A DNA stretch of 64,000 nucleotides from Patescibacteria group bacterium UBA6017 (GTDB lineage Bacteria; Patescibacteriota; Saccharimonadia; UBA4664), in NCBI GenBank assembly GCA_002429485.1, contig DIZX01000015.1, positions 21,363-85,362 of the forward strand. The letters are read 5' to 3'. Positions 44,590 through 59,121 of the stretch are shown here, piece by piece (the stretch's first letter is position 1; the number at the start of each line of letters is the position of its first letter). The notes below the pieces were generated by a model that was given only the letters and a program-made list of their open reading frames with translations, ran no database searches and was not told the DNA's origin. A program made the translations under genes and the position numbers.

Positions 44590-44630
44590 GCTGTGCCTCC
44601 TCATTCGAGTTGGGTTGAATCCAAATGGAT

Positions 44631-44978: not shown

Positions 44979-45172
44979 TCGCCTTGCCTTTCGTCGAGTG
45001 GGTCAAGCGTTTCGCAACCATACCACCATATAAGACAAAAGTAAATCATCCAAATCTCGAACCAACCCCCGCATCAATAATGTCGTCAACCCGATTTTTG
45101 AGTACGATTCCAGACCGAATTCTCGCATCCGGCCTTCAAAAAGTTATTCGCGGCCATTTTTCTATATAATCC

Positions 45173-45442
45173 CTATTGGTCAGGATCGAGAATAGACGGT
45201 TGACCGGTCACCTTTCGATATGCAGCAAAATATTTGAGCCAGCGAACTTCGCCGGCGCTCACTTCCAACAAGTCATGATCAATACCCGAGACCCGGTCCT
45301 CGGCATATATTCCCTCTTCAACATTAAGCTTCTCAAGCTGCTCTTGAGACAGCTTTTCAATTTCGTCTTCAAACAATTGAAGCTCCGGGCCTTTGTTGTC
45401 CTCAACGATTTCGGTTGGGTCTATCATCTCGTACCCTTTCAA
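45173..45442 (-). CDS. Small highly acidic protein, candidate immunity/antitoxin-like partner
   Basis: 89 aa, about 30 percent Asp/Glu. Lies 100 nt downstream of the 343-aa coiled-coil protein on the same strand. Confidence 0.35.
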   Translation of the reverse strand: MKGYEMIDPTEIVEDNKGPELQLFEDEIEKLSQEQLEKLNVEEGIYAEDRVSGIDHDLLEVSAGEVRWLKYFAAYRKVTGQPSILDPDQ

Positions 45443-45541
45443 GCAGTTCTATCGATAAATATAATTATAATGCAGTGATGGATGGTCTGCGGCTTGTGAG
45501 CCGCAGACCATCTCGTCTGACACTCCTGATGAAAAACCCAA

Positions 45542-46573
45542 TTACTCCTGGGTCTGCCTCACCGGGACGTCAACGCTGTCTTGGCCGTAGCCAGGACTCT
45601 GGGGCTGATGATGCATACTCTTGTCTCGTACCTGCTTTCCGTCAACGCGCTTGTTCGCGTCAACATGAGGGAACGGCTGGTCGCCAGTGTGCACTCCTGA
45701 GAAACGAATGCGCGTCGTGCCGTGGTCCACGTGATCAGTGAAGTTCTCCGCTCCATGCGGATCGAATGGATCACGGCGGTAGGTCACATTACCACTAGAG
45801 TTCATGGTGTAGTGACCGTGACCTGGTCCGTTAGGCTCGCCGATACCCCCGAAGTAGATGTTGACCGTGCCGTCAGGCCCGGTAGACATCCGCAAATCAT
45901 CAAGATACTCGGTAGGCACTCCGGCGCGTTGCGCAATTGCTCGCCTGTCATTCTTGCTCTGCTCGTTCTCAGCCCGAACAATCGTGAGTCGGTCCGCAAA
46001 GGAAGTTTTGGCACGATCGAAATCGTCCTTGGCCTGCCTGAACACCTCACTTGCACTTTCGTGCTGAGACTTGGCACCGTCGTACTCACCTTTTGCCCGA
46101 TCGAAGTCCGCTTTAGCCTGCTGGAATGCAGGCTTCGTGGCATCGTAGTAGTCGCGAGCCTCGCGAAGCTCGTTGACAAGCCGCCGCCGCTGAACGACCG
46201 CTGCTTGGGCCTCAGCCTTGTAGCTGTGGCCTTCATCAGCAAGCCTTCTTGCCGACTCTCTGTCGCCGGAGTTATAGGCCGCAGATGCGCTATCGAACGC
46301 GCTCTTCATGCTCTCGTAAGCAGCTTGCTGCTGCGAGTTCAACGTTTCGATTCGAGGGCGGTTCTGGTCCCGCAGCCTCTGCAGAGCCCGGCACGCATCA
46401 ACCTGCGTTTCGTAGTCCCGCAGCTTTGAGGCGTACGCACGGTCCATTACTTCCCATGTGGCTTGACGTCGGTTCCAGGCATTATTCTGTGCCTGCCACG
46501 CGTCCTGCTTACGCTGAAACACCCGGTCTTGTTCTGACTTCAAGCGGTCGAGCTCGACATCTTGCAGCGCCAT
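45542..46573 (-). CDS. Coiled-coil repeat protein with distinct Gly/His-rich C-terminal domain, candidate toxin/effector
   Basis: N-terminal 220 aa of repeated AKxDFDRAK-type helical repeats. C-terminal about 110 aa (GPDGTVNIYFGGIGEPNGPGHGHYTMNSSGN ... FDPHG ... HVDHG) is unrelated and His-rich. No signal peptide. Confidence 0.35.
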   Translation of the reverse strand: MALQDVELDRLKSEQDRVFQRKQDAWQAQNNAWNRRQATWEVMDRAYASKLRDYETQVDACRALQRLRDQNRPRIETLNSQQQAAYESMKSAFDSASAAYNSGDRESARRLADEGHSYKAEAQAAVVQRRRLVNELREARDYYDATKPAFQQAKADFDRAKGEYDGAKSQHESASEVFRQAKDDFDRAKTSFADRLTIVRAENEQSKNDRRAIAQRAGVPTEYLDDLRMSTGPDGTVNIYFGGIGEPNGPGHGHYTMNSSGNVTYRRDPFDPHGAENFTDHVDHGTTRIRFSGVHTGDQPFPHVDANKRVDGKQVRDKSMHHQPQSPGYGQDSVDVPVRQTQE

Positions 46574-46706
46574 TCGGAGTCACCCACTCGTGTGAAGGAT
46601 CGGATTCCACGTTAAGTTACGTGAATCGAGACTATACCATTAATAGAGCCTTAATTACGATAGTAAAGATGTAAAATCACCATTGCGCTCATGCTACAAT
46701 TCACGC

Positions 46707-47483
46707 ATGAACGACACTACCCCCTCACCAACCCCAACCAACAAGCCCGCCCTGCAGCTCAGCCTCAGCTGGCGCACGCTCACGATCCTCTTGCTCGCCG
46801 TTATCGCCGCCATGACCTTCGCCTGGAAGCCCTGGACCAAGCCCACTGCCGCCCGCACCATCACTGTTCAGGGCGAAGCTACCATCACCGCCGTTCCAGA
46901 TAAATACGATTTCCAGCCCACCTTTGCAGGTGCCGACCTCAAAGCCGTCACCGCCACCGGCAACGAAGCCGTCGCTCGGCTCAAAAAATTAGGCGTCAAA
47001 GACACCGATATCAAAACCGCAATATCCTCAGCCGGTACCATGAATCCCGATCCGGCGTATGAGTCCCCCCTCATGTACCCGCGCCCCACATCAAACACCT
47101 CCACCTATACCATCACCTTGACCGTCCGGGACAAAACCCTCGCCCAAAAAGTCAGCGATTATCTCGCTACCACGCCGGCCACCGGCCAAGTCACACCGTC
47201 CGCCTCGTTCAACAAAGACACCGCGGCCAAGCTCGACCTCGATGCCCGCAGCAAAGCCAGTGATAATGCAAAATCCAAGGCCACTGTCACAGCCAAACAG
47301 CTTGGTGCCCACCTTGGCAAAGTCATCACGATCAGCGACGTCAGCAATGGCGGCATCTACCCCATGACCGGCACCGAAGGCACCATGCCGCCCCAACCAG
47401 CCAAAGCCGCAGCCGGCCCGACCGTCCAGCCCGGCACCAACGAAGTAAACTACTCCTTCACGGTCGAATTCGAACTAAAGTAA
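46707..47483 (+). CDS. SIMPL-domain (DUF541/BP26-like) periplasmic/anchored protein
   Basis: N-terminal TM. ITVQGEATITAVPD start and overall pattern typical of SIMPL/DUF541. Confidence 0.7.
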   Translation: MNDTTPSPTPTNKPALQLSLSWRTLTILLLAVIAAMTFAWKPWTKPTAARTITVQGEATITAVPDKYDFQPTFAGADLKAVTATGNEAVARLKKLGVKDTDIKTAISSAGTMNPDPAYESPLMYPRPTSNTSTYTITLTVRDKTLAQKVSDYLATTPATGQVTPSASFNKDTAAKLDLDARSKASDNAKSKATVTAKQLGAHLGKVITISDVSNGGIYPMTGTEGTMPPQPAKAAAGPTVQPGTNEVNYSFTVEFELK

Positions 47484-47550
47484 CTCTCCAGAATTCGGAT
47501 TTCGTAGTAATTATATCTACGAAATAGCTCAAACACCTTTATCCCACGTA

Positions 47551-47985
47551 TCAGCCAGGATTGCTGGCGTGATTCTCGTGGCGCGGCAGCTTCATCTGCT
47601 GCTTACCGGCGAGCTTGATCCCCGCCTTGCCTACCCATAGCGCCATCCCCAACACACCCATCGCTGCCAACATCACCTTGCTCTTATCCACGATCGGCAC
47701 AAACTCCGACCCGTCCGGCGCAACGTTAATGTAGCCCACGGGGGTTGCCGTTATGTTCAAACCCAGCCCCATGCCGGTACCCTGCCCGAGCTTACCCGAC
47801 TCATCGCCCTTCACCGGCGCCTAACCGGTACCACCGCCCCCGCCGCCACGCACAGACACGCGGGCTACGGGCACAATTAGGTTCTCGCCGTTATGTACGG
47901 GCTCGCCAAACACCGCCTGCGCACTGGCTGTCTTTGAAATCCGATCCGAGAGCTCCGCCATTAAACCTTTTGCATCCATATTCAT
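47551..47985 (-). pseudogene. YtfJ/GerW-family protein interrupted by a frameshift in a poly-G/C tract
   Basis: N-terminal ORF (MNMDAKGLMAEL...IVPVARVSVRGGGGGGTG) and C-terminal ORF (...ATPVGYINVAPDGSEFVPIV...) together match one YtfJ/GerW-like protein. Frames switch inside the run ccgcccccgccgcc near 47815-47835. Confidence 0.5.
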
Positions 47986-48118
47986 TCCCCTTTTACATAC
48001 AAAAAATATCCCATACGCCGTCGATGATCGATATATCACAATCACCAAATTAGCGGTCGCACCTATGAATATTCTTATGAGACCAACGAATCCGCCGCCG
48101 CCATGACGCTACGAAACG

Positions 48119-49414
48119 TTAACGGAAGTAAAACTGCAGATCCTCGTGGCTGTAGAGGTACAGGTCTGTCCACGTTGACCCGTTTGTCGTGAACTGCCCG
48201 GTACCATCGGGAAAGACGTAGGAGAGGAAGCCCTTGTCCGTTCCGGCGCGAACAGGAAAAGCGGTGTATGTTGTACCGGCCGCGGTTGATACCCTCAGGT
48301 TATAGCTGGCCCCGTTGGTAAGCACGTGTGACGAAGCAAAGTTAGCCGCCACCCACACTGCCCCGCCGGTGTCGCCACCGGGAGCAGACACCGGAATACT
48401 TGCGGCGGTAACACTCACCGATTCAATGGCCGAGCCCCCCGAAGTTTCCAGGGTTAAGATCAAAGGATCTGTTCCACCCGATCGTCTCAGTCTGATTCCG
48501 ACGCTAGTCACCGTCCTGTTCCCGCCCGAGACGGTGAACCGTTCACGGGCCATGTTGCTCGCACCCGAAATGGTGGCGTATTTGTCTATCATGGCCTCGT
48601 AATACGATTGACCATCGTGAGTTCCGTTGGCATATGCCAGGTCAACAACCGGCGTGTATCCAGGCTGTATCGCGCCCCATGATCCGGTCGTATACATCAG
48701 CCCGTAGTCAGAATCCGAAAGCCTCGGCTGACGTGGTGTTGTAGAATTGTATACAAAGACGCTATTCACCGAGATATTATTGTTCACGTCCGGGTTCGTA
48801 AATACCACGTAATATATACGCCCAGCGGTCAGTGTGGGCGGGCTGGAGAAGGTCACCGGTGTATACGTCTCCCAGTTGCCACCCGGGTTACCGGTAGTAA
48901 TAGACCCAGCTGCAAGGCTCGTGCCCGATGGATGGCCGCTGCCGTCATCGGCTTGGAGGCTAAGGGTTGTCGTCCCGCCGTTTCCGTTCGAATACACGGG
49001 CCCGCCGCGCTGGACCCAGCGCACGCTGTTCAGCGCTGAAGTCGTGGAGGCCTTGAACCTGATCGCCACTTTCTGACCGGCAGGGCCCACATTAATGTTC
49101 GCCTTCGTGTCGTAGCCTATCCCCGGACCATAGATCACTCCTGCCGTAGGCGGGGTCGGGGTCGCGGTCGGAGCAGGCGTCGGAGTCGGAGCCACACCAT
49201 TGCCAAATGCCACCAATTTTCCGCCGGATGCGCCAGCGTCAGTTTTGGCCGCGGCCTGACCGCTGAGACCTGCCGACTCCAGCTCAAATTGCGCAAATGA
49301 TCCAGCCGCCAGCACCCTGCCCACGACGTAGCCAGCGATCACCGTTAACACCACCAGTACGACTGACTTCAAGTTCAGGCGGAGCTGAGGACGGGGTGGT
49401 TGTAGCAGCGGCAT
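48119..49414 (-). CDS. Membrane-anchored secreted protein with Pro/Thr linker and large beta-rich ectodomain
   Basis: N-terminal TM/signal anchor, PTPTPAPTATPTPP linker, Gly/Thr/Ser-rich domain. Confidence 0.4.
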   Translation of the reverse strand: MPLLQPPRPQLRLNLKSVVLVVLTVIAGYVVGRVLAAGSFAQFELESAGLSGQAAAKTDAGASGGKLVAFGNGVAPTPTPAPTATPTPPTAGVIYGPGIGYDTKANINVGPAGQKVAIRFKASTTSALNSVRWVQRGGPVYSNGNGGTTTLSLQADDGSGHPSGTSLAAGSITTGNPGGNWETYTPVTFSSPPTLTAGRIYYVVFTNPDVNNNISVNSVFVYNSTTPRQPRLSDSDYGLMYTTGSWGAIQPGYTPVVDLAYANGTHDGQSYYEAMIDKYATISGASNMARERFTVSGGNRTVTSVGIRLRRSGGTDPLILTLETSGGSAIESVSVTAASIPVSAPGGDTGGAVWVAANFASSHVLTNGASYNLRVSTAAGTTYTAFPVRAGTDKGFLSYVFPDGTGQFTTNGSTWTDLYLYSHEDLQFYFR

Positions 49415-49426
49415 CCTTACTTCCTT

Positions 49427-50437
49427 CTATACATTATTTGGCGGGGTGTCACCGGAAGACTCCGGCGGATCAGTCGGCAAAATGAGCTCGGCCTCGCTCG
49501 GCCCACTGGATCCAACCGTAGATCGCAAGGCGCGATGAGTCATCGCATACAAGATACCTCCGCCGACCAAAATCAGCAGCAAAACGATGCCCGAGATGAT
49601 CTGCCAGTGGCCCTGGACTCCGCGAACCAGTTGATACTGCCAGCCATTCTCCACCTTGATAGTCTGCTTGGCCAAAGTCGGCTGACCGTGGCTATCCGTT
49701 GTAACCTGCTCAACTACATGCTCACCGTCGCTCAATTTAGTCGTATCCAGATTGTCGCTGCCCACCGGCTGACCATCGATCATATACGCCACCTTATCGG
49801 TCGTCGGAAGCAGAGGAGTGAGCGTAATCTTACCCGAAACTACAACGGGCGTGGTCGAATTACCCGGCTTTATCACCACCGGCGCAGTATTTGCGGTCGG
49901 TTTGGGGGTAGCTGTGGCGGTAGGGCTAGATATCGGAGTCACGCTGGGCGTAGGAGTCGTCCCGCCGCCGGGAACTGGTGTCGCCGTCGGTGCAGGACCG
50001 CAATTGGTTCCAAAGCCAGTCGGAATACACGTGGTATCGGTCAAGAACATCACCTTATCCACCCCCACTCCCGGATCTACTCCGGCCACGATGACATTAT
50101 GGGTACCGGCGGCAAGGCTCACATTTATCTTACTTGTGGTCGAAGCACCGTAATCCACCCACGTAAACTGGTTTGCCGGAAGAGCGCCGTTCTGGCCAAT
50201 CAAGATATTGCAGTAGCTTTGATCAACCTGCATCTGCACCTTGCCGCTGCCGACCGACACAGGATGCAGCCTAGTCCACACGCGGTACACCCCGGCCGTA
50301 GGGGCCGAAACCGAAAACGCCGCCTGGCCCTTGTCCGCCGGTAACGAGGCACAGGCAGCTTGCGCTGGTGCTGGCGAAATAAATACTAGGGCTCCCCCCA
50401 GAATCAGCCCAATACAGACAATAGAACTAGCTCGCAA
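49427..50437 (-). CDS. Cell-surface protein with signal peptide, Pro/Thr linker and C-terminal TM anchor
   Basis: Signal peptide (ISPAPAQAA), PTATPVPGGGTTPTPSVTPISSPTATATPKPT linker, C-terminal hydrophobic anchor. Confidence 0.4.
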   Translation of the reverse strand: MRASSIVCIGLILGGALVFISPAPAQAACASLPADKGQAAFSVSAPTAGVYRVWTRLHPVSVGSGKVQMQVDQSYCNILIGQNGALPANQFTWVDYGASTTSKINVSLAAGTHNVIVAGVDPGVGVDKVMFLTDTTCIPTGFGTNCGPAPTATPVPGGGTTPTPSVTPISSPTATATPKPTANTAPVVIKPGNSTTPVVVSGKITLTPLLPTTDKVAYMIDGQPVGSDNLDTTKLSDGEHVVEQVTTDSHGQPTLAKQTIKVENGWQYQLVRGVQGHWQIISGIVLLLILVGGGILYAMTHRALRSTVGSSGPSEAELILPTDPPESSGDTPPNNV

Positions 50438-50489
50438 AATATATAACCATAAGTAATTAACCCCAGTTTATCGCTCCTCATGCAATTTG

Positions 50490-50741
50490 TCATATATAAG
50501 TCGGTTCCTCAAACACCGTCTCCCCCACGGCGTTAATCATCGAGTACCCCACACTCGCACTCTTCGCCCACTGCGGAATCAGCCTCCATTTCATCATCTC
50601 CAGCCCGTCAGAAGTCTCCACCGGCGCATACTGCGACGGCGCAACGTTGTAATTAGGACCACGATAACCATCCAACTCAAGCTGAGAATAGTAATCCATG
50701 ATCACTTTTCCATCTACAACTAAGGTAAATCTTCCGCACAC
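50490..50741 (-). pseudogene. SRAP/YedK-family (abasic-site DNA-protein crosslink, MCGRF) gene, N-terminal 83-aa fragment only
   Basis: Begins MCGRFTLV with the catalytic Cys2, RLIPQWAK, AETVFEEPTY. Terminates after about one third of normal length, exactly where visibly AT-rich foreign DNA begins. Confidence 0.6.
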
Positions 50742-50760
50742 GCTTTCGATCCTAAATTAA

Positions 50761-51903
50761 CTAGACTTCTTCAGGTGTTTCTTTTACGACGCGCTCTTGG
50801 GTTTTTGATTTATAGCTCCAACCTGCGCCTAATTCGGCAAAGATTGCCTCATTAATTAATTTTTGATTTATCGGCTTCAAAAATAAATCGCGGTGAAAAT
50901 TGAACCGGCTCAAAATCGTAATAGTATTTTCAGATATTTCAACGTTATACATTCCCATCAAAGCTCCCAGAGAATTATTAGACAGTCTCACACGCTTAAT
51001 AATTCTATTCCATGCAAGGTTATCTTGAATTTGAGGAGCTGCACTTGCTAATGCAGCTTTAGAATTCTTGCGGTTTAGCAATCTGATGGAGGCGTGAAGA
51101 GTAGCAAGGTAGAAATAAAACATCCAGTTCAGCCATATGTCTTGGTCGTATTCACGCAGCTGTTTTTGGTCGTAATGCCTTATCGCAAACTTATTGGCGA
51201 TTGTGAAAATTGCATCTTCGTCCTTGCTATTTAATACCTTCGCGACATCACCCTTTATGCTTTCGAACGCATCAGCCAAATCGTGTACAGCATCTCGTTT
51301 GTCGCTTACAGATGATCGTTGCTGGCGAAATTTCCGTATCGCACGCTCGGCAATTTCATTTACATCGCCAGTTTTATATTTAGGTAATGAGCTAACAAAT
51401 AATTGCGTGAACCCTTTATCTCCAAGAGCTAATATTTCGCCTTGTTCATCAAGCGTATAACCATCCTCATAGCCACCAAGTATTTCATTAATATCCTCAC
51501 GATAGCTCTTTCGACCCTCATCAACATCAAATTCATAATAATGCATGCCACAATCATTATCCGAATCAAAACTACCTTTAGTAGGTTTTGATACATGGTC
51601 ATACAGAAACTCGATCATATCGAAAATGTCATCTTCAGAGTATTTTTCGTAGTGTTCTTCTATCGGCCATATCGCCCTTTTTCTCAGCTTACGAAATATG
51701 TATTGAGCAATCTCTCCACCAACTAGACCGTTGATTTGCCCGCCACCGCTTATACATTCAAATCCGAAGTTCTGGTCAAAGAACGATTTTGCATTTAGCT
51801 CCCGATAAACAATCAAGAAAAGTTCGGCAAGCATTGTAAAGTTATAGCCATTAGCGTCTGGGTTAGTTCCTGTTCGAGATGAATAGTATCGTCTAGTTGG
51901 CAT
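50761..51903 (-). CDS. AT-rich foreign hypothetical protein (380 aa), candidate abortive-infection/defence gene
   Basis: Visibly lower GC and AAA/AAT/TTA-rich codons versus flanking host genes. Cytoplasmic, no TM. Lies between the truncated SRAP gene and the duplicated tmRNA 3' end. Confidence 0.45.
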   Translation of the reverse strand: MPTRRYYSSRTGTNPDANGYNFTMLAELFLIVYRELNAKSFFDQNFGFECISGGGQINGLVGGEIAQYIFRKLRKRAIWPIEEHYEKYSEDDIFDMIEFLYDHVSKPTKGSFDSDNDCGMHYYEFDVDEGRKSYREDINEILGGYEDGYTLDEQGEILALGDKGFTQLFVSSLPKYKTGDVNEIAERAIRKFRQQRSSVSDKRDAVHDLADAFESIKGDVAKVLNSKDEDAIFTIANKFAIRHYDQKQLREYDQDIWLNWMFYFYLATLHASIRLLNRKNSKAALASAAPQIQDNLAWNRIIKRVRLSNNSLGALMGMYNVEISENTITILSRFNFHRDLFLKPINQKLINEAIFAELGAGWSYKSKTQERVVKETPEEV

Positions 51904-51926
51904 AATTAGATATTTTACTCCATAAA

Positions 51927-51949
51927 AACAAAAAAGGCCCCGGAGGGCC
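51927..51949 (-). terminator. Intrinsic terminator (GGCCC-cgga-GGGCC + T-run) within repeat copy 1
   Basis: 5-bp GC stem, 4-nt loop, followed on the minus strand by TTTTTTGTTTTT. Confidence 0.5.
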
Positions 51950-52028
51950 TTAATTATTGCATTGGTGGAGCTGCGGAGAATCGCACCCCGGTCCGTCAGG
52001 TTACTCGCTAGTGCACTACAGGCTTAGT
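51927..52028 (-). repeat. Direct repeat copy 1: duplicated tmRNA 3' end (66 nt) plus downstream terminator hairpin
   Basis: Near-identical to 52717..52819. Differences are confined to the terminator loop (CGGA vs TCTC) and one T-arm position (AGAA vs GGGA). Confidence 0.85.
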
Positions 52029-52077
52029 TTAGTTGTTTCGTCGTAACCATAACTACGATTATTATAGTTGTCAGTGA

Positions 52078-52188
52078 TTATGAATTGGTTTCTGCTGAGG
52101 GGACAAACGTTCGCTCGCCACACTTAGGGCACACATTTGGACCAGGATGCATTGTATATTCTACTTTGCAGCTAGAACACGGCTTCAT
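52078..52188 (-). CDS. 36-aa zinc-ribbon protein (MKPCSSCKVEYTMHPGPNVCPKCGERTFVPSAETNS), not in ORF track
   Basis: ATG preceded by GGAGG SD (aagcGGAGGaatatatATG). CxxC...CxxC spacing. Begins 20 nt after the stop of the 166-aa membrane protein on the same strand. Confidence 0.45.
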   Translation of the reverse strand: MKPCSSCKVEYTMHPGPNVCPKCGERTFVPSAETNS

Positions 52189-52207
52189 ATATATTCCTCC
52201 GCTTAAC

Positions 52208-52705
52208 TTAATGAACCGTAATAATCCTAAGGTCAAAGAGTACGGCAATCACCAAAATAAAGTATGCGAATAAGGCGAGAAATAGAAAAATTACTTGAAG
52301 TCTGAGCCATACAACAGATGACTGCTGCTTAAGTGAACTAAGTATTTCATTTACCCTGGACACTGCAATAACGACATCAGTATCCTTTGCTTTGCCCAGA
52401 AGATTAACAACATCGTTATATCCTTTAGCCCAATCAATATGAAAGCTAATGAGGTCGAAATAGTTCTTGATGCCTGAGCCAATAGAGACTATGAGAAGGC
52501 TAAACCCAACAACAATTAGCACCTTCTGGTTTGCTGCCATGGATTGAAGGCGAGCAAAATCTGAATAGACGACAAGGTTTGCTGAAATGAGAACAGATGT
52601 GATCAGCATGAGCTGGCCACATAGAGCTCTTTCGCTTGCATTCAACTCAGCAAGTGAGATATTCCTCGAGTCGACATATTGGTCGCGCTGTTTTAACCTG
52701 TCCAT
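52208..52705 (-). CDS. AT-rich 166-aa membrane protein (3 TM), island cargo
   Basis: Start at the Met after the tmRNA terminator. Hydrophobic segments LMLITSVLISANLVVY, VLIVVGFSLLIVSIG, VIFLFLALFAYFILVIAVLF. AT-rich codon usage. Not in the ORF track as such: the track entry 52208..52777 is a 189-aa ORF whose N-extension overlaps the tmRNA 3' end. Confidence 0.5.
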   Translation of the reverse strand: MDRLKQRDQYVDSRNISLAELNASERALCGQLMLITSVLISANLVVYSDFARLQSMAANQKVLIVVGFSLLIVSIGSGIKNYFDLISFHIDWAKGYNDVVNLLGKAKDTDVVIAVSRVNEILSSLKQQSSVVWLRLQVIFLFLALFAYFILVIAVLFDLRIITVH

Positions 52706-52716
52706 ACTGTAAGTAT

Positions 52717-52819
52717 AACAAAAAAGGCCCTCTCGGGCCTTAATTATTGCATTGGTGGAGCTGCGGGGGAATCGCACCCCGGTCCGTCAGGTTACTCGCT
52801 AGTGCACTACAGGCTTAGT
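52717..52819 (-). repeat. Direct repeat copy 2 (the copy contiguous with the tmRNA body)
   Basis: Same roughly 103 bp as 51927..52028. Includes the tmRNA 3' 66 nt and the terminator hairpin GGCCC-tctc-GGGCC. Confidence 0.85.
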
Positions 52820-53131
52820 CTGCTTACATGTCTTAGCCCATCACCTGTGAGCAAACCAAACGGTGACGAGAGCATCCTCAGATCTTAGCTTAGGGGCAGA
52901 GGCCCAACCCTAAGAGCGTCCCGATGATTTGATACCGACGAACCCCTACCGGGAATCAGGTGTCGATAGCTTACGTTATTAGGCGTAAGCGGGTGCGAAT
53001 GAAGGTACCGTAAAGGCAGCCTTCACCCGCGAAATGAAGTTGGCAGTTAAGCTAACTAATGGAATCTAACGTTTGCCTCCGACCTGCGCACATAGCTTGT
53101 AAAAGTCCCAACGTCGAGCCTGATCAGCCCC
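52753..53131 (-). ncRNA. ssrA: tmRNA (ssrA), 379 nt with encoded CCA
   Basis: 5' GGGGCTGATCAGGCTCGACGTTGGGAC and 3' GGACCGGGGTGCGATTCCCCCGCAGCTCCACCA form a tRNA-Ala-like acceptor with a G3-U70 wobble. Internal tag ORF ends ...TTCGCACCCGCTTACGCC TAA TAA inside a hairpin (GCTTACG...CGTAAGC). Confidence 0.85.
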
Positions 53132-53146
53132 ACGATTTACCCTCGG

Positions 53147-53175
53147 ATTATAGCAAATTACGGGTGTTTAGGCAA
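53147..53175 (-). promoter_or_regulatory. Sigma70-like promoter for ssrA (-35 TTGCCT, 17-nt spacer, -10 TATAAT)
   Basis: Read on the minus strand: TTGCCTaaacacccgtaatttgcTATAATccgagggtaaatcgtgGGGG. Confidence 0.55.
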
Positions 53176-53350
53176 GATTTGGTAGGTTTTTGGGTGCCGC
53201 AGATGTTGTAATTTAAGCATAAGTATTGTTGTAGAAATAGCGACACTATGTCCAAAAACTCTTACCATATCGCTCCCCTTTTTGGGGGCCGCTCCAATGC
53301 CAAACCGCTAGGCTAAGCGTAGTATTCAAAACGTAATGTGGAGGTGCGAG

Positions 53351-53665
53351 ATGGACCGAGAAGAGTTCACCGATTACGAAGGCATGGATCCGGGTCTGAA
53401 AGAGAGCATTTACGACGGAGCGGAATATGAGCTCGACGAGTTCGGTGAGCGTATCGGATCCGAAGATACCGCCGAAGAGGCCGTGTCTGAAGATGAAGGT
53501 ATGTCCGAGGAGGAAATGCAGCCGCTGATTGTCGTTGAGGATGGATTTGGCGAGGCTATCACGCCCGCCAGCAATCCCCACCTCGAAGACCAGCTCGACG
53601 ACACCAAACTTCACGACGAAGCCGAGGCTGAAAATCCCTCGCCAGACAAGCCCGCCGAGCCTTAA
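53351..53665 (+). CDS. Highly acidic 104-aa hypothetical protein
   Basis: GGAGG SD then ATG at 53351. Asp/Glu-rich (EEAVSEDEGMSEEEMQ). The overlapping minus-strand ORF 53246..53614 is probably spurious. Confidence 0.4.
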   Translation: MDREEFTDYEGMDPGLKESIYDGAEYELDEFGERIGSEDTAEEAVSEDEGMSEEEMQPLIVVEDGFGEAITPASNPHLEDQLDDTKLHDEAEAENPSPDKPAEP

Positions 53666-53782
53666 GCACCCCTAGCGGCTCGTATTGCAGCTTTATAGCA
53701 TCACCTCGGTCCCCCACTTAGTCAGATGGGAGTCCGGGGTGTTTGCGTGGGCTTTGGTAAGCCAGGTGATATAATTTAAGGC

Positions 53783-54664
53783 GTGGAACTCACCAAAAAA
53801 ACCGTTAATGTTGTAAATGTCGACGGGCTCGCCACCAGTTACCGGGAATCCAATCCTACGGCCAGCCAGACGATCCTAATGCTCCGCGGCTTTCGTACCA
53901 GTGATCGCGGGCTCCTGGTTCTTGCACGCAAGTTCTCCGGCTATCATCTGATCATTCCCGACCTGCCTGGATACGGCCAGACCCAAGAATTGCCCGGCGG
54001 CAACACTATTCCTGCCTATGCTGAGTTTGTGGCACGTTTTTGCGACTTACTGGATCTGCATGATGTTACTATTCTGGGCCACAGCCTGGGAGCGCACGTG
54101 GGGCTGGCCTATGCGGCCAAGCACCCCCAGCGAGTCAAAAATTTAGTCTTAATCTCCCCCATTCCCCGCCCCAATTTGATGTCCCGGGCCGTCAGCCTGT
54201 ACTACCAAATCGGCCGGGCCTTGCCCGCGCCCCTCGAGCACGGCTGGCTCACCAACCGCAAAGTCCACCAGACTATTCGCAAGTTCGTGGTCCGCACCAA
54301 CGACCCCGTGCTGCGCGAGCAGATCATGCGCGAAGGCGAACGTGAGCTCAAAGAACTCCGCCCCAACGTCAACGTAGAGAACTTTCTCAGCCTGGTTTCT
54401 ACCGATCCGGAATACTACATCCCGCACCTGAGCGTGCCTACCTTGGTGTTGGCGGGCGATCTGGACCGTCTCACTCGCCTGTCCGATGTAGTGAATGCCT
54501 ATCAACATCCACTAATAGAACTTCGGGTGATCAAGGGCATGGGGCACTATGGTCCGTCGGAGATTCCGGGGGAAATAAGTGCCATAGTGATGAGTTGGTT
54601 ACAACGAGATTCAGCATTGCTAGCCTCGCCGAATACTGAATTACCCTTGGCGGTGGCAATATGA
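53783..54664 (+). CDS. Alpha/beta hydrolase fold protein
   Basis: Nucleophile elbow GHSLGAHV. Typical length. Confidence 0.75.
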   Translation: MELTKKTVNVVNVDGLATSYRESNPTASQTILMLRGFRTSDRGLLVLARKFSGYHLIIPDLPGYGQTQELPGGNTIPAYAEFVARFCDLLDLHDVTILGHSLGAHVGLAYAAKHPQRVKNLVLISPIPRPNLMSRAVSLYYQIGRALPAPLEHGWLTNRKVHQTIRKFVVRTNDPVLREQIMREGERELKELRPNVNVENFLSLVSTDPEYYIPHLSVPTLVLAGDLDRLTRLSDVVNAYQHPLIELRVIKGMGHYGPSEIPGEISAIVMSWLQRDSALLASPNTELPLAVAI

Positions 54665-55512
54665 AACTTTTTGAACCCGAGGCGCAGAACCTCACCATCT
54701 TCGGCAGTCATACGAAGTATTGGGTCTACAATCCCACCCAGACGCAGACTATTCTTATGGTTCATGGCTTTCGCGGCAACCATCTTGGACTTCAGTACAT
54801 CATTGCCGGCCTCAGCGCCTACCGCGTGATCGTGCCCGACCTGCCCGGTTTTGGTGAATCACTGCCCATGACCGAGCGCGCTCACGACATCGATGGTTAC
54901 AGCGATTTTACTCGAGAGTTTATGAAGCTCACCGGTCTTCGCCAGCCCGTTCTGCTCGGACACTCCTTCGGGACCATCGTGGCCGCGCATCTAACCGCGC
55001 GTGAAGCGGAGCTGTTCTCGAAGCTGATCCTGATCAATCCAATCATCGTTTCGCCGCGCGTGGGACTGAGCGGCCCCGTCACCAAACTAGTAGAAGCGTA
55101 TTACTGGTTGGGTACTGCCATGCCCGGCAGATTCAGCCAACGCGTACTGACCAGTCGGCTCTTCAACCGCGGCATGAGCCTGTCGCTCAGCCGGACCAAA
55201 GACCCCGATCTGCGCCGCTTAGTATATAAGCACCATCTCAGCGATCTGGACCAGGCCCAGCACCGACGCGTGATCGCCGAATCGTTCGCCGCCTCCATCA
55301 CCAAAACCGCCCTCGACGATGCCGCCCACATTCATTTGGACACCCTGCTCATCGCCGGCAACCAGGACCCCATCGCCTCGGCCAAGTCGCAGCACCGGCT
55401 TCACGCCGCCATCACGCGTTCACGACTAATCCTCATTCCCAAGGTCGGTCATCTGGTTCACCTGGAGACACCTGCCGCCGCCTCAGATGCCATTTCGGAT
55501 TTTCTCGGCTAG
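54661..55512 (+). CDS. Alpha/beta hydrolase fold protein (tandem paralog)
   Basis: GHSFGTIV nucleophile elbow. 4-nt overlap with the upstream paralog. Confidence 0.75.
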   Translation: MKLFEPEAQNLTIFGSHTKYWVYNPTQTQTILMVHGFRGNHLGLQYIIAGLSAYRVIVPDLPGFGESLPMTERAHDIDGYSDFTREFMKLTGLRQPVLLGHSFGTIVAAHLTAREAELFSKLILINPIIVSPRVGLSGPVTKLVEAYYWLGTAMPGRFSQRVLTSRLFNRGMSLSLSRTKDPDLRRLVYKHHLSDLDQAQHRRVIAESFAASITKTALDDAAHIHLDTLLIAGNQDPIASAKSQHRLHAAITRSRLILIPKVGHLVHLETPAAASDAISDFLG

Positions 55513-56708
55513 AGTACTTCCGACAATTCGGGCTTCACAGGCGAGCGCATCGCAATCACCTCGGCATACAACTCTTCGAACTTATCCAACGTCACGCTCA
55601 AATCATGCTTAGACACAATCTCGAGGCTGCGCGCACTCATGGTTTTAACCAGCTCAGGATCAGCCAATAGCTCGCCGATGCCTTGGCTCATCACTTCGTA
55701 ATCATCAATTTCAAATAAGAACCCGTTCTCACCATTCTTGCACAGCTCGTACAATGCGCCCGCATTCACCGCCACTACCGGCATCCCGCTCGCCATGGCT
55801 TCCATAGTTGAAATACTCTGCAACTCCGCCGGCGATGGCATGGCGAAGATCGTTCCGGTGCGCAATATCATCGGCTTATCGGCTTCATCGATTCTCCCGA
55901 CGAATGTCACCCGCTCCTCAAGTCCCAAATCAGTCGCTACCTCTACGAGATGCGACAGGTCATTGCCGTCACCAACGACGACCGCGTGATACCGCAGTTT
56001 TGGATCCAGATGTTGTAATGCTCGCAACAAAATCGATACATGCTTCTCGGAGTCCAGCCGTCCTAGATACATCACAATCGGAACATTCATTGGAATGTTG
56101 TATCGCTCGTAAAATTCCGGGGTTGGTTGGCCGGTATGGAATCGCTTCAAATCAATCCCGTTGGAAATCGCCACGTACGGCTTCGCGAATGAGTCTGGTT
56201 TGAGCATACGAATAGCCGCCACTGTTGGCAACGTCACGTAATCAGCGTTGCCGTAGAAGCGGCTGCCGTACTCCCGTAGAATGTAATCAATCTGCCGCGC
56301 GAATGGTGCCAACAGCTTGAGGTTATCTATCAAATTCTCGGACATCGAGTGGTTTGTAGCCACCAGCGGTACGTGATACTTCTTGGCCGCACCAATGGCC
56401 CCGAGCCCGATACCCAGCGGCGTCTGCAGATGAATAATGTCGGGCTTAAACTGCTTAGTAATCTCGTTGATCTCGCGGTTAGGCGACAGCGATACCCGCA
56501 AGTTCTGATAGAACGGAAATATCACCGAAGCAGTTCGCACTACCCGATGATTCTTATCCTGCTCTTCGTATTTTTTGCCCGTCTGAGAGGGCGCAACCAC
56601 CACTACCTCATGCCCGCGCTCGGCCAAGCCTTGCGCTAAGTTCCGCCCAAATGTGGCAATACCGTTCATCGTGGGCCAGTGAAGATCGGAGGCAATAAGT
56701 ATCCGCAT
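55509..56708 (-). CDS. GT4 family glycosyltransferase
   Basis: GT-B fold, C-terminal EAMASGMPVVA motif. Start taken at MRILIASD; the ORF track extends to 56756. Confidence 0.8.
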   Translation of the reverse strand: MRILIASDLHWPTMNGIATFGRNLAQGLAERGHEVVVVAPSQTGKKYEEQDKNHRVVRTASVIFPFYQNLRVSLSPNREINEITKQFKPDIIHLQTPLGIGLGAIGAAKKYHVPLVATNHSMSENLIDNLKLLAPFARQIDYILREYGSRFYGNADYVTLPTVAAIRMLKPDSFAKPYVAISNGIDLKRFHTGQPTPEFYERYNIPMNVPIVMYLGRLDSEKHVSILLRALQHLDPKLRYHAVVVGDGNDLSHLVEVATDLGLEERVTFVGRIDEADKPMILRTGTIFAMPSPAELQSISTMEAMASGMPVVAVNAGALYELCKNGENGFLFEIDDYEVMSQGIGELLADPELVKTMSARSLEIVSKHDLSVTLDKFEELYAEVIAMRSPVKPELSEVL

Positions 56709-56757
56709 GTTTTTATTATACCAACCCATAACCGAGATATGATAGAGTAATGACACT

Positions 56758-57894
56758 ATGAACGTAGTTTTTGACTCCCGCTGGACAAAAATTGGTCATC
56801 ACGATGGCATTAGCCGATTTGGCGCCAATCTTCTCGACTCGCTCCTCAAGATCACCCCGGTGACCGTACTTATATATGACCTCCGCCAGCTCGAAATGCT
56901 GCCAAAAAACGTTCCCTATCTCCTAGTAAACAATCCCGTGTCGCCACGCGAGCTATTGCTGCCCTTGAAGCTCAATAAGCTTGGCGTCGACGTGGTCTAT
57001 AGCCCGATGCAGATCATGGGCAGCTTCGGCCGCAACTATAAACTCATCTTCACCCTGCACGATCTGGTGCTCTACACCCTCAAGCACGTCAGTGAATTCA
57101 AGCACCCGTCCCTGGGCGGATATCTGGGCATCTCACCAAGCTTCTTTATTTGGCTCATGCACCGCGCCTACTGGCCGCAGAGGCTAGTACTCAATCAGGC
57201 GGACCTCATTGTGACCGTGAGTGAAACCACCAAGCAAGACATCTTGCGCCACCACCTCACCGACCGACCCGTAGAAGTGGTATATAACGCTACGCCCGAT
57301 CTCGGACCCGGCAAAGCTCATGGTGACATCAAACGTGAACTCGTCTTCATGGGAACACTATTGCCCTATAAGAACGCCGAGCTGCTCATCAAGGCGCTCG
57401 AGCTCCTGCCCGATTACCATCTCCACCTGCCCGGCCGCGGCACACCCGACCGGCTGTCGGCCCTCAAGGCTCTGGCCGCCCCATACGCCAACCGCGTAAC
57501 TTTCTGGAATGGTGCCAGCGACCAGGAATACGCCAAGATGCTAGATAGCGCCACCGCCATGGTGAGCGCCTCACGCTTCGAAGGCTTTGGCCTGCCGATC
57601 GTCGAAGCCATGGCCCGCGACGTGCCGGTGGTTTGTACCGATATGCCAATCTTCCACGAGGTTGCCGGCCAGGCGGCCCTCTATTTCGATCCCGATTCCC
57701 CCGCCGACTTTGCCGCCAAGATCCACGAGGTCGAAAATCCTGCCCGCCGCACCGAATTGATCAAGCTCGGCCGCGCCCAAGCCGCTACCTTCAGCTGGGA
57801 AAAATCAGCCGGCACCCTGCTCAAGATAATGACCTCCCTCAAAAACGCCGACGCCGTCCCGCTGAGCGCCGACACCACCCCCACCAAGTCTTAA
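56758..57894 (+). CDS. GT4 family glycosyltransferase
   Basis: FEGFGLPIVEAMARDVPVVCTD motif. Confidence 0.8.
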   Translation: MNVVFDSRWTKIGHHDGISRFGANLLDSLLKITPVTVLIYDLRQLEMLPKNVPYLLVNNPVSPRELLLPLKLNKLGVDVVYSPMQIMGSFGRNYKLIFTLHDLVLYTLKHVSEFKHPSLGGYLGISPSFFIWLMHRAYWPQRLVLNQADLIVTVSETTKQDILRHHLTDRPVEVVYNATPDLGPGKAHGDIKRELVFMGTLLPYKNAELLIKALELLPDYHLHLPGRGTPDRLSALKALAAPYANRVTFWNGASDQEYAKMLDSATAMVSASRFEGFGLPIVEAMARDVPVVCTDMPIFHEVAGQAALYFDPDSPADFAAKIHEVENPARRTELIKLGRAQAATFSWEKSAGTLLKIMTSLKNADAVPLSADTTPTKS

Positions 57895-57918
57895 ACTAAT
57901 ATCTGGTAAGATACACAG

Positions 57919-59058
57919 GTGACCACACCATCTCATCTATCGAATAAAAAACGTGTACTCATGCTTATGGCGACCGCCGGCGGCGGGCACAAGAGTGCCG
58001 CCGAAAGTATCGCCGAGGCCCTCACTCATCAGTACGGCGATCAAGTCATCATCGACACCGTCGACGTGCTCAAGGAGTATGCCCCGCATCCCTTCGGCTA
58101 TTCGCCCGAGGCCTACCAGCTCATGATCAAAGCTCCGGCGGCCTGGAAGGGTTTCTACGATCTCGGCGATGGCGTGCGCCGTTCCAAGATGATCAATACC
58201 AGCATCTCGCGTTACGCCCGCCGTCACAGCGCCCGCCTCCTCGACAATCACGAAGCTGACATTATTATCTCCACCTACCATTTCGCCAACTCCCCAATCC
58301 TGGAAACTCTCAGCCGCCGGCATCTGACCACCCCCTTTGTGACCGTGGTCACCGATCTGGTTACCGCCCCGCCCATCTGGTTCGATACCCGCACCAGCCT
58401 CTGTATCACCCCTACCCCCGAAACCGCCGAGCTCGCCCTCAGGAGTGGGCTCGATCCCGACGTTATCAAAGTCATTGGCATGCCGGTATCCTCCCGGTTT
58501 ACCCCGCCGACCCGCCCCAAATCAGACCTTAAAACGGCCCTCGGCTGGCCCGCCGATAAACCCGTCATTATTGCCATGGCCGGCGGCGAAGGCGTGGGTG
58601 CGCTCGATCAAATCGCTGAAGAATTAACAACACTTGATGCAACAATTGTCATAATTACGGGTAAAAACGCCCACCTACTAGAAAAACTCAGCACCGAAAA
58701 TGCCCCCGAAAATCTTAAAGTTTACGGTTTTGTAAACAACATGAATGAGCTAATGCAGGCCGCCGATCTAATCGTAACCAAGGCTGGGCCTGGCACCATC
58801 ATGGAAGCGCTAAACTCCCACCTCCCCCTCATCCTCTACGCACGCCTATCCGGCCAGGAAGACGGCAATGTGAGCTTCGTCACCAATCACGGCGCCGGCC
58901 TGTGGCAGCCCAAAATCCACGAAATGGCCGCTACCATCCAAACGATCTTCGATGACCCGCTGGCAATCGCCAACATGACCGCCGCTGCGGCCACCATCGC
59001 GCAAAACGGCGCCAGCACCAAAATCGCCACCGCCATCGGCGACCTCCTGGCGCTGTAG
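57919..59058 (+). CDS. GT28 diacylglycerol glycosyltransferase (MGDG synthase / UgtP-like)
   Basis: N-terminal RVLMLMATAGGGHKSAAESI typical of MGDG synthase/UgtP. GT-B C-terminal half. Confidence 0.7.
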   Translation: MTTPSHLSNKKRVLMLMATAGGGHKSAAESIAEALTHQYGDQVIIDTVDVLKEYAPHPFGYSPEAYQLMIKAPAAWKGFYDLGDGVRRSKMINTSISRYARRHSARLLDNHEADIIISTYHFANSPILETLSRRHLTTPFVTVVTDLVTAPPIWFDTRTSLCITPTPETAELALRSGLDPDVIKVIGMPVSSRFTPPTRPKSDLKTALGWPADKPVIIAMAGGEGVGALDQIAEELTTLDATIVIITGKNAHLLEKLSTENAPENLKVYGFVNNMNELMQAADLIVTKAGPGTIMEALNSHLPLILYARLSGQEDGNVSFVTNHGAGLWQPKIHEMAATIQTIFDDPLAIANMTAAAATIAQNGASTKIATAIGDLLAL

Positions 59059-59121
59059 CGCCTCCCGCAGGTGCTTTTTCCTAGGCTTTTGGCGACAAAG
59101 TTGTTACGCTTACAATAGTAA

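Follow-up and report, generated by a model that had tools for sequence, protein, structure and literature searches.

A probable CIME-like mini-island without an integrase at the 3' end of the tmRNA gene in a Saccharibacterium

A 790-bp unit at the 3' end of the tmRNA gene (ssrA) of an uncultured Candidatus Saccharibacteria (TM7) bacterium is probably a non-autonomous, CIME-like mini-island. It lies in a 64-kb stretch of DNA, referred to here as the window, and is made up of 688 bp of cargo with two ORFs and one 102-bp repeat of the tmRNA 3' end. The original prediction recognised the classical signature of insertion at ssrA in this region, and the components of that signature were found: a regenerated target gene, foreign cargo, and a displaced, directly repeated 3' fragment. 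The unit belongs to a well-known class of genomic islands, among which it is very small, and integration at the tmRNA gene has reportedly been worked on by Williams. Little is understood about gene flow in Saccharibacteria, which are ultra-small episymbionts.

The tmRNA gene was called by ARAGORN on the minus strand, and Rfam model RF00023 matches it over its full length with 94.6 bits, against a gathering score of 47. Within the window, blastn pairs its 3' end with a second copy in direct orientation (E = 8e-39), as expected from the original prediction of near-identical repeats of the tmRNA end plus terminator. The copies are 102 and 103 nt long, and are identical at 97 of 102 aligned positions. 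The distal copy lies 790 bp downstream of the proximal one. In RNA sense each copy starts at ACUAAGCCUGUAG and takes in the T-arm, the acceptor 3' strand and CCA; past CCA come an 11-nt spacer, a G+C-rich hairpin of 7 bp and a run of U. The two hairpins were called terminator-like, with folding energies of -18.7 and -16.7 kcal/mol. No third copy of the repeat was found in the whole 64-kb window with blastn-short at word size 7. ARAGORN and Rfam agree with the original reading that the right copy is continuous with the tmRNA body and the left copy is detached. The coordinates of all features are collected in the table.

Features of the ssrA region. Positions are those of the window.
Feature	Position	Strand	Remarks
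Functional tmRNA (ssrA) gene	52753..53131	-	Last 66-67 nt are part of the proximal repeat
Putative tmRNA promoter, TTGCCT-17-TATAAT	53175-53147		Upstream of tmRNA
Proximal repeat (attL-like): tmRNA 3' end, 11-nt spacer, terminator	52717..52819	-	T-arm base canonical G (+ strand); loop GAGA (RNA sense)
Proximal terminator hairpin	52724..52741	-	7-bp stem, GAGA (GNRA-type) loop, then U-run; now ends the tmRNA transcript
Inferred crossover interval, 32 nt	52735..52766	.	T-arm marker to terminator loop; RNA sense CCGCAGCUCCACCAAUGCAAUAAUUAAGGCCC; holds only if L001 is truly empty
Cargo ORF B	52208..52705	-	165 aa, three long helices, predicted membrane protein; ATG 12 nt past the repeat
Cargo ORF C	52078..52188	-	36 aa, CxxC...CxxC zinc-ribbon ORF; GGAGG 8 nt upstream of ATG
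Distal repeat (attR-like): displaced tmRNA 3' fragment (51963-52028), spacer, native-type terminator	51927..52028	-	T-arm marker A at 51977; loop UCCG (RNA sense)
Distal-copy equivalent of the crossover interval	51945-51976
Distal terminator hairpin	51934..51951	-	UCCG (UNCG-type) loop; placed to end the cargo transcript; precedes ORF A
AT-rich ORF A	50761..51903	-	380 aa, 39% GC; AbiJ_NTD4-like (Pfam E = 5e-4), PDC-S32-like candidate defence gene (PADLOC PDC-S32 E = 6e-12)
SRAP gene fragment	50490..50741	-	N-terminal 83 aa of a ~214-position domain; Pfam PF02586, E = 1.7e-16, profile positions 1-90 of 214

The distal copy is a detached, non-functional tmRNA fragment. It holds the last 66 nt of tmRNA and gives a partial Rfam match of 17.4 bits, and no 5' acceptor-strand sequence was found inside the island. 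A reading of the fragment as a permuted, two-piece or mini-tmRNA was rejected: RF04321 gives 23.2 bits against a gathering score of 47 (E = 0.1), a sub-threshold match driven by the T-arm and acceptor, and the absence of a 5' acceptor strand nearby also opposes it.

The two copies differ in two places. The terminator loops differ at all four bases (CGGA on the left and TCTC on the right, plus strand), just as originally described. The other difference, in the T-arm, had been described as a single position, but in the window it amounts to one substitution and one extra base, as can be read from the T-stem 3' strands, GCGGAGAATCG on the left and GCGGGGGAATCG on the right (plus strand). The extra base is a G near 52765 which is absent from every other assembly covering the site (five with the island and one without), and which is the sole difference between the window and two 20.5-kb contigs. 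A homopolymer error or a rare variant probably accounts for it. The functional T-arm with four G's has the canonical form that all 77 related genomes found also show.

The base composition of the cargo is foreign, with 40.7% GC compared to 54.9% for the window. An open frame as long as its larger gene, ORF B, appeared in one of 2000 shuffles. ORF B belongs to an uncharacterised family with the motif N-x-(T/S)-E-R-x-L-C-x-Q-L-M-L, of which 91 cluster representatives were found and aligned, and AlphaFold2 predicts its structure with a pLDDT of 92.9 using this alignment versus 61 from the single sequence. The predicted fold has no PDB matches at E <= 0.001, and Pfam, PHROGs and PADLOC return nothing convincing, with scattered weak matches to 8xMP, 2TM effector and PycTM. 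Homologues in other Saccharimonadales have an overlapping small gene upstream in every context examined, with the motif KG(T/S)xF(Y)TPM, and are usually ~20-35 residues longer at the N-terminus. ORF B has neither the extension nor the partner gene, and the missing partner suggests that the cargo may be a leftover fragment, not a designed cassette. Naturally short N-termini exist in some family members. Two homologues (in L089 and L090) sit between two large serine recombinase genes (PF00239), one of which abuts a tRNA-Gly gene in L089. By our own reading, the ORF B transcript may have a leaderless start from TGTTATACT, 6 nt upstream of the ATG. The smaller gene, ORF C, gives zinc-ribbon matches in Pfam, all sub-threshold, and was left uncalled by metagenome gene callers. 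These are the sole ORFs in the 688-bp cargo, and neither holds a recombinase domain. Since the island encodes no recombinase, it would be unable to move alone.

The two-copy structure and its cargo recur in five other independent assemblies (JGI, ENA), which answers the concern, raised with the original prediction, that the repeat might be an assembly duplication. It had also been proposed that related genomes be searched for an empty ssrA site. One short-read MAG contig, L001, lacks exactly the 790-bp unit, with both flanks at least 99.95% identical to the island-bearing genome and four other differences in 17 kb. Judged by its sequence, L001 is an apparent empty site, but a collapse misassembly would look identical. 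Its single copy is a mosaic: the proximal repeat carries G in the T-arm and a GAGA loop, the distal repeat carries A and UCCG, and L001 carries the proximal G with the distal UCCG. Such a copy would result from reciprocal recombination within the 32-nt interval between these markers, which takes in the acceptor 3' strand and CCA as well as the spacer and 5' terminator stem. A repeat-collapse misassembly of L001, skipping the loop A-R-U-R-B, would yield the same G + UCCG junction. A second contig, L004, comes from a k=31 assembly, and its G possibly arose from bubble popping; since bubble popping in the k=31 graph could produce L004, this contig was downgraded as support for an empty site. In the Logan assemblies the ORF B cluster has no members, while ORF A and the upstream 104-aa protein do. 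If L001 is correctly assembled, the island was gained or lost very recently, which does not fit the decayed relic of the original prediction. If the presence/absence polymorphism is real, co-occurring strains that are nearly identical would have gained or lost genes relative to one another.

The proposed origin of the probable mini-island is as follows. Incoming DNA would have borne a near-identical tmRNA 3' end and terminator, and would have entered the chromosomal site by one reciprocal recombination. The tmRNA body now ends in the 3' segment and GAGA-loop terminator supplied by the element, and the native 3' end with its UCCG-loop terminator is displaced 790 bp downstream, where the terminator closes the cargo. 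Comparison with the apparent empty site would place the crossover in the 32-nt stretch. Most likely the island began as, or within, a site-specifically integrating element. Its present gain or loss would most likely proceed by recombination between or around the 102-bp repeats, either RecA-type or by a recombinase acting in trans.

Searches for such an enzyme or for a donor were negative. Precomputed Pfam hits on identical contigs, covering window positions ~1-62700, include no integrase or recombinase and no hit to PF00239 serine recombinases, in line with the original statement that the window holds no integrase. Among relatives, no integrase was found near ssrA in 30 ORFs scanned out of 116 candidates (the two nearest ORFs per locus, 77 loci). 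IMG/VR pattern scans and INPHARED blastn gave no match to a donor phage or element with the att sequence, and IMG/VR scans guided by the proteins of ORF B and its family gave no donor either. Scans of viruses, phages and metagenomes thus yielded neither a circular or attP form nor a donor element. In metagenomes, pattern scans for attB, attP, attL and attR variants returned zero matches. The pattern does match the JGI-derived locus L082, so the collection evidently lacks samples holding this organism and the zero is uninformative. An identity as an insertion sequence or MITE was rejected, as the unit has no terminal inverted repeats and is bounded by direct repeats, 102 nt long, that derive from its target gene.

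Insertions behind ssrA were also found in related species. In L026, a 1.1-kb island with a Fic gene lies between tmRNA and a displaced fragment. The fragment has the native-type spacer and terminator also found here, and the core that matches perfectly measures 16 nt. L007 and L023 carry units of 150-175 nt that finish with a repeated tmRNA 3' end, which begins within the T-loop or directly behind it and measures 19 nt in L007 (ATTCCCCGCAGCTCCACCA) and 23 nt in L023 (CGATTCCCCGCAGCTCCACCAAA). The identity blocks of these insertions are only 16-23 nt, and RecA does not recombine efficiently over such short lengths; site-specific enzymes that target ssrA therefore seem to be active in the phylum. 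The region downstream of ssrA appears to be a variable spot in the clade. Defence- or toxin-like genes lie there: the AbiJ-like gene in the window and the Fic gene of L026, while L039 has an AAA_21/DUF4435 ATPase and L046 a zeta-toxin-like kinase. A duplicated tmRNA end in L040 flanks a run of N and was therefore rejected as a scaffolding artefact.

Several other histories of the unit were weighed. It may be that homology alone is at work, an alternative to which we give somewhat less than an even chance. Transformation with a double crossover in the flanks would spread the island between conspecific strains and RecA would remove it between the 102-bp repeats, so that no site-specific recombinase would ever be needed in this lineage and only the very first formation would be left unexplained. 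The 97 shared positions of 102 are well above the minimal length for RecA recombination, and no recombinase is annotated in the covered part of the window or among the ssrA-adjacent ORFs scanned in relatives. The crossover interval takes up 32 of ~97 shared nt and would be hit about one time in three by uniform placement. Shared sequence flanks the inferred crossover on both sides, 51 nt upstream and beyond the gene end, which speaks against the origin proposed above: a classical integrase element needs no such two-sided homology, and simple homologous recombination fits it better. Homology does not account for the first joining of a tmRNA 3' copy to foreign 41%-GC cargo, however, nor would it act efficiently on the 16-23-nt identity blocks of related species. 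It is also possible, if doubtful, that the unit is the remnant of a larger, integrase-bearing ssrA island, which was reduced to two small ORFs flanked by intact att sites, either by a deletion inside it or when a tandem neighbour was excised. This would suit the missing partner gene and N-terminal residues of ORF B, the recombinase genes around its homologues in L089 and L090, and the definition of CIMEs as elements that have lost integration and transfer genes (PMC6323972). Yet the cargo is compact and filled by two intact ORFs, tblastn with the neighbours of ORF B homologues found no pseudogene debris, a deletion would need an endpoint within 12 nt of the terminator, and the short N-terminus is natural in some members of the family.

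The original prediction held that the two copies had diverged in place under selection for hairpin function. Such an old, fixed duplication, with terminators drifting under stem selection, would be consistent with the intact stems and with loops that both fall in stable tetraloop classes (GNRA and UNCG), but it is very unlikely. All four loop bases differ, against one difference among the other 98 repeat positions, and four adjacent substitutions in place would be very unlikely where strains with and without the island differ at only four other positions in 17 kb. The L001 copy is a mosaic, and a native terminator that already has a GAGA loop is present in a related species (L026). Most simply, the GAGA and UCCG loops come from two parental att sites that were already different. 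The A in the distal T-arm is probably not later decay either; at the observed divergence, we estimate that ~0.02 new mutations would be expected in the 66-nt fragment. An assembly artefact is scarcely credible. The window's repeat does contain one probable homopolymer error, but the same diverged copies and cargo occur in the five other assemblies, and the copies differ at fixed marker positions. Short-read assemblers collapse repeats and do not create them.

Islander maps islands by an intact target gene and a directly repeated, displaced 3' fragment, and ssrA is the most enriched island target of the tRNA/tmRNA kind (PMC4383910). The probable mini-island resembles Islander islands in that it regenerates its target gene, its far end is marked by a displaced direct 3' fragment, its cargo is foreign in composition, and, if L001 is correctly assembled, a close relative has an empty site. 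The adjacent target gene is intact, given the full-length tmRNA found by ARAGORN and Rfam and the canonical T-arm in the other assemblies. No tyrosine integrase lies inside the island, and Islander, which requires an integrase gene, would not report it. It also differs in its length of 0.79 kb, compared to Islander length peaks of 13.6 and 39.9 kb, and in its 102-nt identity block, which continues beyond the gene end through the terminator, with the inferred crossover inside it. Searches for islands in tRNA and tmRNA genes usually set out from the integrase and miss a 0.8-kb island that has none, so insertions of such a length may be more numerous than present counts. The mini-island leaves the current understanding of island formation unchanged.

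CIMEs keep their att sites while their integration and transfer genes are gone (PMC6323972), and the mini-island likewise keeps attL- and attR-like repeats without integration or transfer genes. It has no known partner ICE or IME, is very small, and sits in an ultra-small-genome episymbiont phylum; the likeness is one of structure, read from 64 kb of genome. Integrase-less units between ssrA repeats in Dehalococcoides have been discussed as possible CIMEs (PMC3146451). The ssrA islands of Dehalococcoides, which involve the DsiB serine recombinase, share with the mini-island a streamlined genome, insertion downstream of a single-copy ssrA and direct repeats of its 3' end, and some of those units also have no integration module. 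Dehalococcoides islands have 20-bp repeats, T-loop insertion, and a six-gene integration module in the 16 islands having one, whereas the mini-island has a 102-nt repeat, an inferred crossover 3' of the T-loop, and no DsiB/DsiA module. The L007 and L023 units are closer to the Dehalococcoides geometry.

Like integron cassettes, the mini-island is smaller than 1 kb, has one or two ORFs, would depend on a recombinase in trans and lies directly downstream of a strongly expressed gene. Unlike them, it has no attC-type imperfect palindrome, its only inverted repeats being the two terminators, and no IntI/attI platform was found in the window, for which no integrase is annotated at ~1-62700; its site is a copy of the target gene's end. 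A broader reading, which we consider unlikely, is that the extreme 3' end of ssrA is a cassette-acceptor site in Saccharibacteria, where small integrase-less units would be moved, integron-like, by a recombinase encoded elsewhere. The kinds of unit seen are the 0.79-kb two-gene unit here, the 1.1-kb single-gene Fic unit and the non-coding units of 150-175 nt. If this reading were true, defence- and toxin-like genes would accumulate behind a strongly transcribed gene.

To the left of the island, the AT-rich ORF A and the SRAP gene fragment had been taken to suggest tandem or sequential insertions. This is conjecture: the window holds no third tmRNA fragment, and ORF A is found both with and without the mini-island, being present in L001. 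Over 170 homologues of ORF A share 40-49% identity with it, and Chloroflexota, Paenibacillus, Desulfomonilaceae and Pacebacteria are among their sources.

The 3' end of ssrA, the tmRNA gene, is present twice in the window. ARAGORN found a single tmRNA gene, and Rfam RF00023 covers it end to end with 94.6 bits against a gathering score of 47. The original prediction described a duplication of the 3' end of this gene together with its terminator, and this was borne out by a repeat finder and a pairwise alignment, which place direct repeats of 102 and 103 nt (E = 8e-39 by blastn within the window) on either side of 688 bp of cargo. The blastn comparison gave no third copy in the whole 64 kb. In RNA sense, each copy holds the last 66 nt of the tmRNA, from ACUAAGCCUGUAG via the T-arm and the acceptor 3' strand to CCA, followed by an 11-nt spacer, a 7-bp G+C-rich hairpin and a U-run. 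Both hairpins are terminator-like and stable on folding, and all four loop bases differ between the copy joined to the tmRNA body (proximal) and the displaced copy (distal). The second difference is in the 3' strand of the T-stem. No 5' acceptor strand was found in the island, so the distal copy is unable to form the tRNA-like domain. SmpB, the protein that works with tmRNA, is encoded about 30 kb from ssrA; the coordinates of its gene were converted from the Pfam annotation of L086.

The proximal T-stem has five G's (+ strand, 52765-52769) in the window and four in all other assemblies covering the site, and the extra G is the sole difference of the window from two 20.5-kb contigs, L082 and L083. 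A homopolymer mistake of the source assembly, or a rare variant, is the probable cause. The four-G version gives a canonical T-arm; were the five G's real, the T-loop would have 8 nt or the stem a bulge.

Features of the ssrA locus in the window and in the apparent empty site (marker bases on the + strand, loops in RNA sense)
Feature	Coordinates	Strand	Details
tmRNA gene	52753-53131	-	
Proximal copy	52717-52819		103 nt; in island genomes, T-arm marker G, loop GAGA
Distal copy	51927-52028		102 nt; in island genomes, T-arm marker A at 51977, loop UCCG
Single copy in L001			T-arm marker G, loop UCCG
Interval between markers, proximal	52735-52766		32 nt, RNA sense CCGCAGCUCCACCAAUGCAAUAAUUAAGGCCC
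Interval between markers, distal	51945-51976		32 nt, same sequence
ORF A	50761-51903	-	39% GC; sub-threshold AbiJ_NTD4 match; PADLOC PDC-S32, E = 6e-12
ORF B	52208-52705	-	165 aa
ORF C	52078-52188	-	36 aa, CxxC...CxxC zinc-ribbon ORF
SmpB gene	~21876-22316	+	

Exact-protein look-ups recovered the locus, its cargo and the two diverged copies included, from five further assemblies (JGI 3300011992, 3300013758 and 3300011996; ENA ERZ27248656 and ERZ27248637), so the duplication is not an artefact of a single assembly. A JGI scaffold, L084, shows a dense cluster of substitutions and indels relative to the window at 55411-55460, the 3' end of the second alpha/beta-hydrolase gene, and almost none elsewhere; the patch may vary between strains or reflect a local fault of assembly.

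The cargo is foreign in composition, at 40.7% GC against 54.9% for the window, and both of its genes lie on the tmRNA strand. An open frame as long as ORF B appeared in one of 2000 shuffles of the cargo segment. A word-indexed search with ORF B matched nothing beyond ORF B itself, and an exhaustive HMMER search returned 91 representatives of related clusters, of which the best reach 40-42% identity. The family shares the motif N-x-(T/S)-E-R-x-L-C-x-Q-L-M-L and three long hydrophobic helices, and has members in Saccharimonadales genomes. The AlphaFold2 model of ORF B, made with an alignment, is all-helical and confident (pLDDT 92.9); no PDB fold matches it, and Pfam, PHROGs and PADLOC gave scattered weak matches only. 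In every context examined, a small overlapping gene with a KG(T/S)xF(Y)TPM motif precedes the ORF B homologue. This partner is absent from the island and ORF B starts about 20-35 residues later than most relatives, 12 nt past the repeat, so the cargo looks like part of a larger module; the missing partner suggests reduction from a larger element. ORF C has GGAGG 8 nt before its ATG, and its Pfam matches are all below threshold.

The ATG of ORF B lies 12 nt beyond the terminator U-run (window 52706-52723) and has no Shine-Dalgarno sequence. Ending 6 nt upstream of it is TGTTATACT, which resembles an extended -10 element; this was read by eye from the sequence, and the promoter scan did not report it. 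Expression of ORF B might be leaderless or depend on read-through from ssrA. In two Saccharimonadales assemblies (L089, 275-9852; L090, 32-9609), two genes for large serine recombinases (PF00239; 519 and 544 aa) flank a distantly related homologue of ORF B with its small partner gene, and in L089 one of the two abuts a tRNA-Gly gene. This arrangement looks like a serine-recombinase mobile element of the phylum.

Related genomes were searched for an empty ssrA site, and an apparent one was found in a single MAG contig, L001 (DHWZ01000012.1 of GCA_002413465.1). It aligns to window positions 42992-52028 and 52717-60339 at 99.9% identity or more, and its two alignments overlap by exactly one repeat, so L001 is short of precisely one 790-bp unit (cargo plus one repeat). 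Taken together, the markers of the proximal, distal and single copies show the reciprocal outcome expected of recombination between attB (G...UCCG) and attP (A...GAGA), and the same pattern is equally expected from deletion by recombination between both copies. Whether the island was gained or lost, the crossover would fall in the 32 nt between the markers, and one reciprocal crossover there would have made or removed the 790-bp unit. These markers could also arise if the crossover took place at the repeat's 5' edge and the displaced fragment later mutated from G to A. This is unlikely: outside the repeat, L001 and the window have four differences over 17 kb, and at such divergence an estimated 0.02 or so mutations would be expected in the displaced 66 nt.

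The G + UCCG junction would also come out, with no empty allele behind it, if an assembler skipped the loop of an A-R-U-R-B graph. A second apparent empty contig, L004, comes from a Logan k=31 assembly and stops precisely at the boundary of the repeat; bubble popping could account for its G, and the contig carries little weight as an empty site. Counting for a real absence, L001 is a slightly different strain from the window, its empty site lies within a contiguous 45.8-kb contig, and ORF B's cluster at 90% identity contains one NCBI member only and none from Logan, unlike ORF A and the upstream 104-aa protein, which have Logan members. On balance, the empty allele is quite probably real.

The two loops were originally thought to have diverged in place under selection, a view at odds with four neighbouring substitutions in sequence that is otherwise near-identical. 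In this sub-clade the spacer and terminator belong natively to the chromosome: at a related locus, L046, the tmRNA is followed by CCA-AUGCAAUUAAUGAGAGGCCC-AUCU-GGGC, and the displaced fragment of another, L026, reads CCA-AUGCAAUAAUUAAGCCCC-GAGA-GGGGC, so the GAGA loop pre-exists in a relative. The simplest reading of these sequences is that the incoming DNA brought the ssrA end of a closely related lineage, and the loops would be inherited markers of two parents. They belong to the GNRA and UNCG classes of stable tetraloops, consistent with long-term selection in separate lineages.

In precomputed Pfam annotations of contigs whose sequence is identical to that of the window, there is no integrase, resolvase or transposase over about 1-62700, nearly the whole window (the last 1.3 kb lies outside), in agreement with the expected absence of an integrase. 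In related species the identity blocks are short, which speaks for site-specific recombinases acting on the ssrA end in this phylum and makes a site-specific origin of the island likely. The 102-nt homology lies on both sides of the crossover and extends past the gene end, which is what RecA-type recombination needs and is beyond the requirement of an integrase; homology alone could drive the loss of the unit today and its transfer between strains of one species. Island insertion as a whole is partly supported, and the observation behind it is confirmed.

Outside the repeats, the AT-rich neighbour ORF A has more than 170 homologues at 40-49% identity from sources including several phyla, and was probably acquired horizontally. 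Its C-terminus extends about 100 residues beyond that of most homologues (~280 aa; AbiJ_NTD4 / PDC-S32 family), its start differs among gene callers (357 or 380 aa), and it is present in genomes with and without the mini-island. Tandem or sequential insertion had been proposed here, partly from a truncated SRAP gene, which Pfam shows to be truly an N-terminal fragment. ORF A is bounded by no third tmRNA fragment in the window, and none of the related genomes compared shares the downstream genes; such insertion is therefore possible, not demonstrated.

The locus fits the structural definition of islands at tRNA and tmRNA genes except for the integrase (PMC4383910), and corresponds to the working definition of a cis-mobilizable element (CIME), with att sites kept and integration and transfer genes lost (PMC6323972). 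Units without an integrase between ssrA repeats have been considered possible CIMEs in Dehalococcoides, whose ssrA islands have a 20-bp repeat geometry (PMC3146451). A DsiB-type island was rejected (no recombinase annotated in ~1-62700; 102-nt repeat), as were an integron cassette (no integrase annotated in ~1-62700), an insertion sequence or MITE (the ends are direct repeats of the tmRNA 3' end) and a permuted tmRNA (no 5' acceptor strand in the island). Full-text searches of a literature library found no description of ssrA islands in Saccharibacteria; the island belongs to a known class, is unusually small for it, and lies in a phylum for which none was found described.

A T-arm and acceptor-end pattern run on species-representative genomes gave 77 loci, all with the canonical 32-nt version; the record titles name Candidatus Saccharibacteria or Saccharimonadales in the overwhelming majority and Patescibacteria, Chloroflexi or just bacterium in a few. 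L026 (JBBRSS010000017.1, 1544-2840; Saccharimonadia), whose tmRNA is 98% identical to the window's, holds an independent island of about 1.1 kb without integrase, with a 360-aa HTH-Fic gene between the tmRNA and a displaced fragment. The fragment (~50 nt) keeps the native-type spacer and GAGA-loop terminator, and the element gives the tmRNA its own, unrelated terminator. Perfect identity between the copies is limited to 16 nt (CCCGCAGCTCCACCAA), which share 15 nt with the window's 32-nt interval, namely the acceptor 3' strand, CCA and one more base.

Immediately downstream of the tmRNA gene, L007 (2780-3140, -) and L023 (7300-7560) carry tandem non-coding units of 150-175 nt, each ending in a tmRNA 3'-end copy (19 nt, ATTCCCCGCAGCTCCACCA, in L007; 23 nt, CGATTCCCCGCAGCTCCACCAAA, in L023) and then its own terminator hairpin, and each also holding an inverted copy of the T-arm 5' half (GAATCGCACCC). 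The copies start in or just after the T-loop, recalling the Dehalococcoides geometry (PMC3146451), and the units might be what T-loop-type integrations left behind, or a very small mobile unit. At L040 (7773-7871), the tmRNA end is apparently duplicated over 55 nt on either side of a stretch of N, which was set aside as a scaffolding artefact.

None of 30 ORFs adjoining ssrA in related loci is a recombinase. In close relatives, defence-like or toxin-like genes adjoin it instead: Fic (L026), an AAA_21/DUF4435 ATPase (L039), a zeta-toxin-like kinase (L046) and an HTH protein with DUF6941 (L059). Most Saccharibacteria have a conserved same-strand ORF pair (~128 and 137 aa) 1.2-1.7 kb downstream of ssrA, seen at about 40 related loci besides L013 (4644-5484), where it had no Pfam hit with E <= 0.001; the clade containing the window lacks this arrangement. 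TCGTAAC begins 12 nt from the displaced fragment's inner edge in both islands (window 52041-52058; L026 1642-1684), which may be meaningless at a chance expectation of ~0.3 shared 7-mers per two 50-nt stretches. In L026 it occurs twice direct and once inverted, forming the palindrome ATCGTAAC-ATTTT-GTTACGAT, and in the window it is paired with an imperfect inverted copy.
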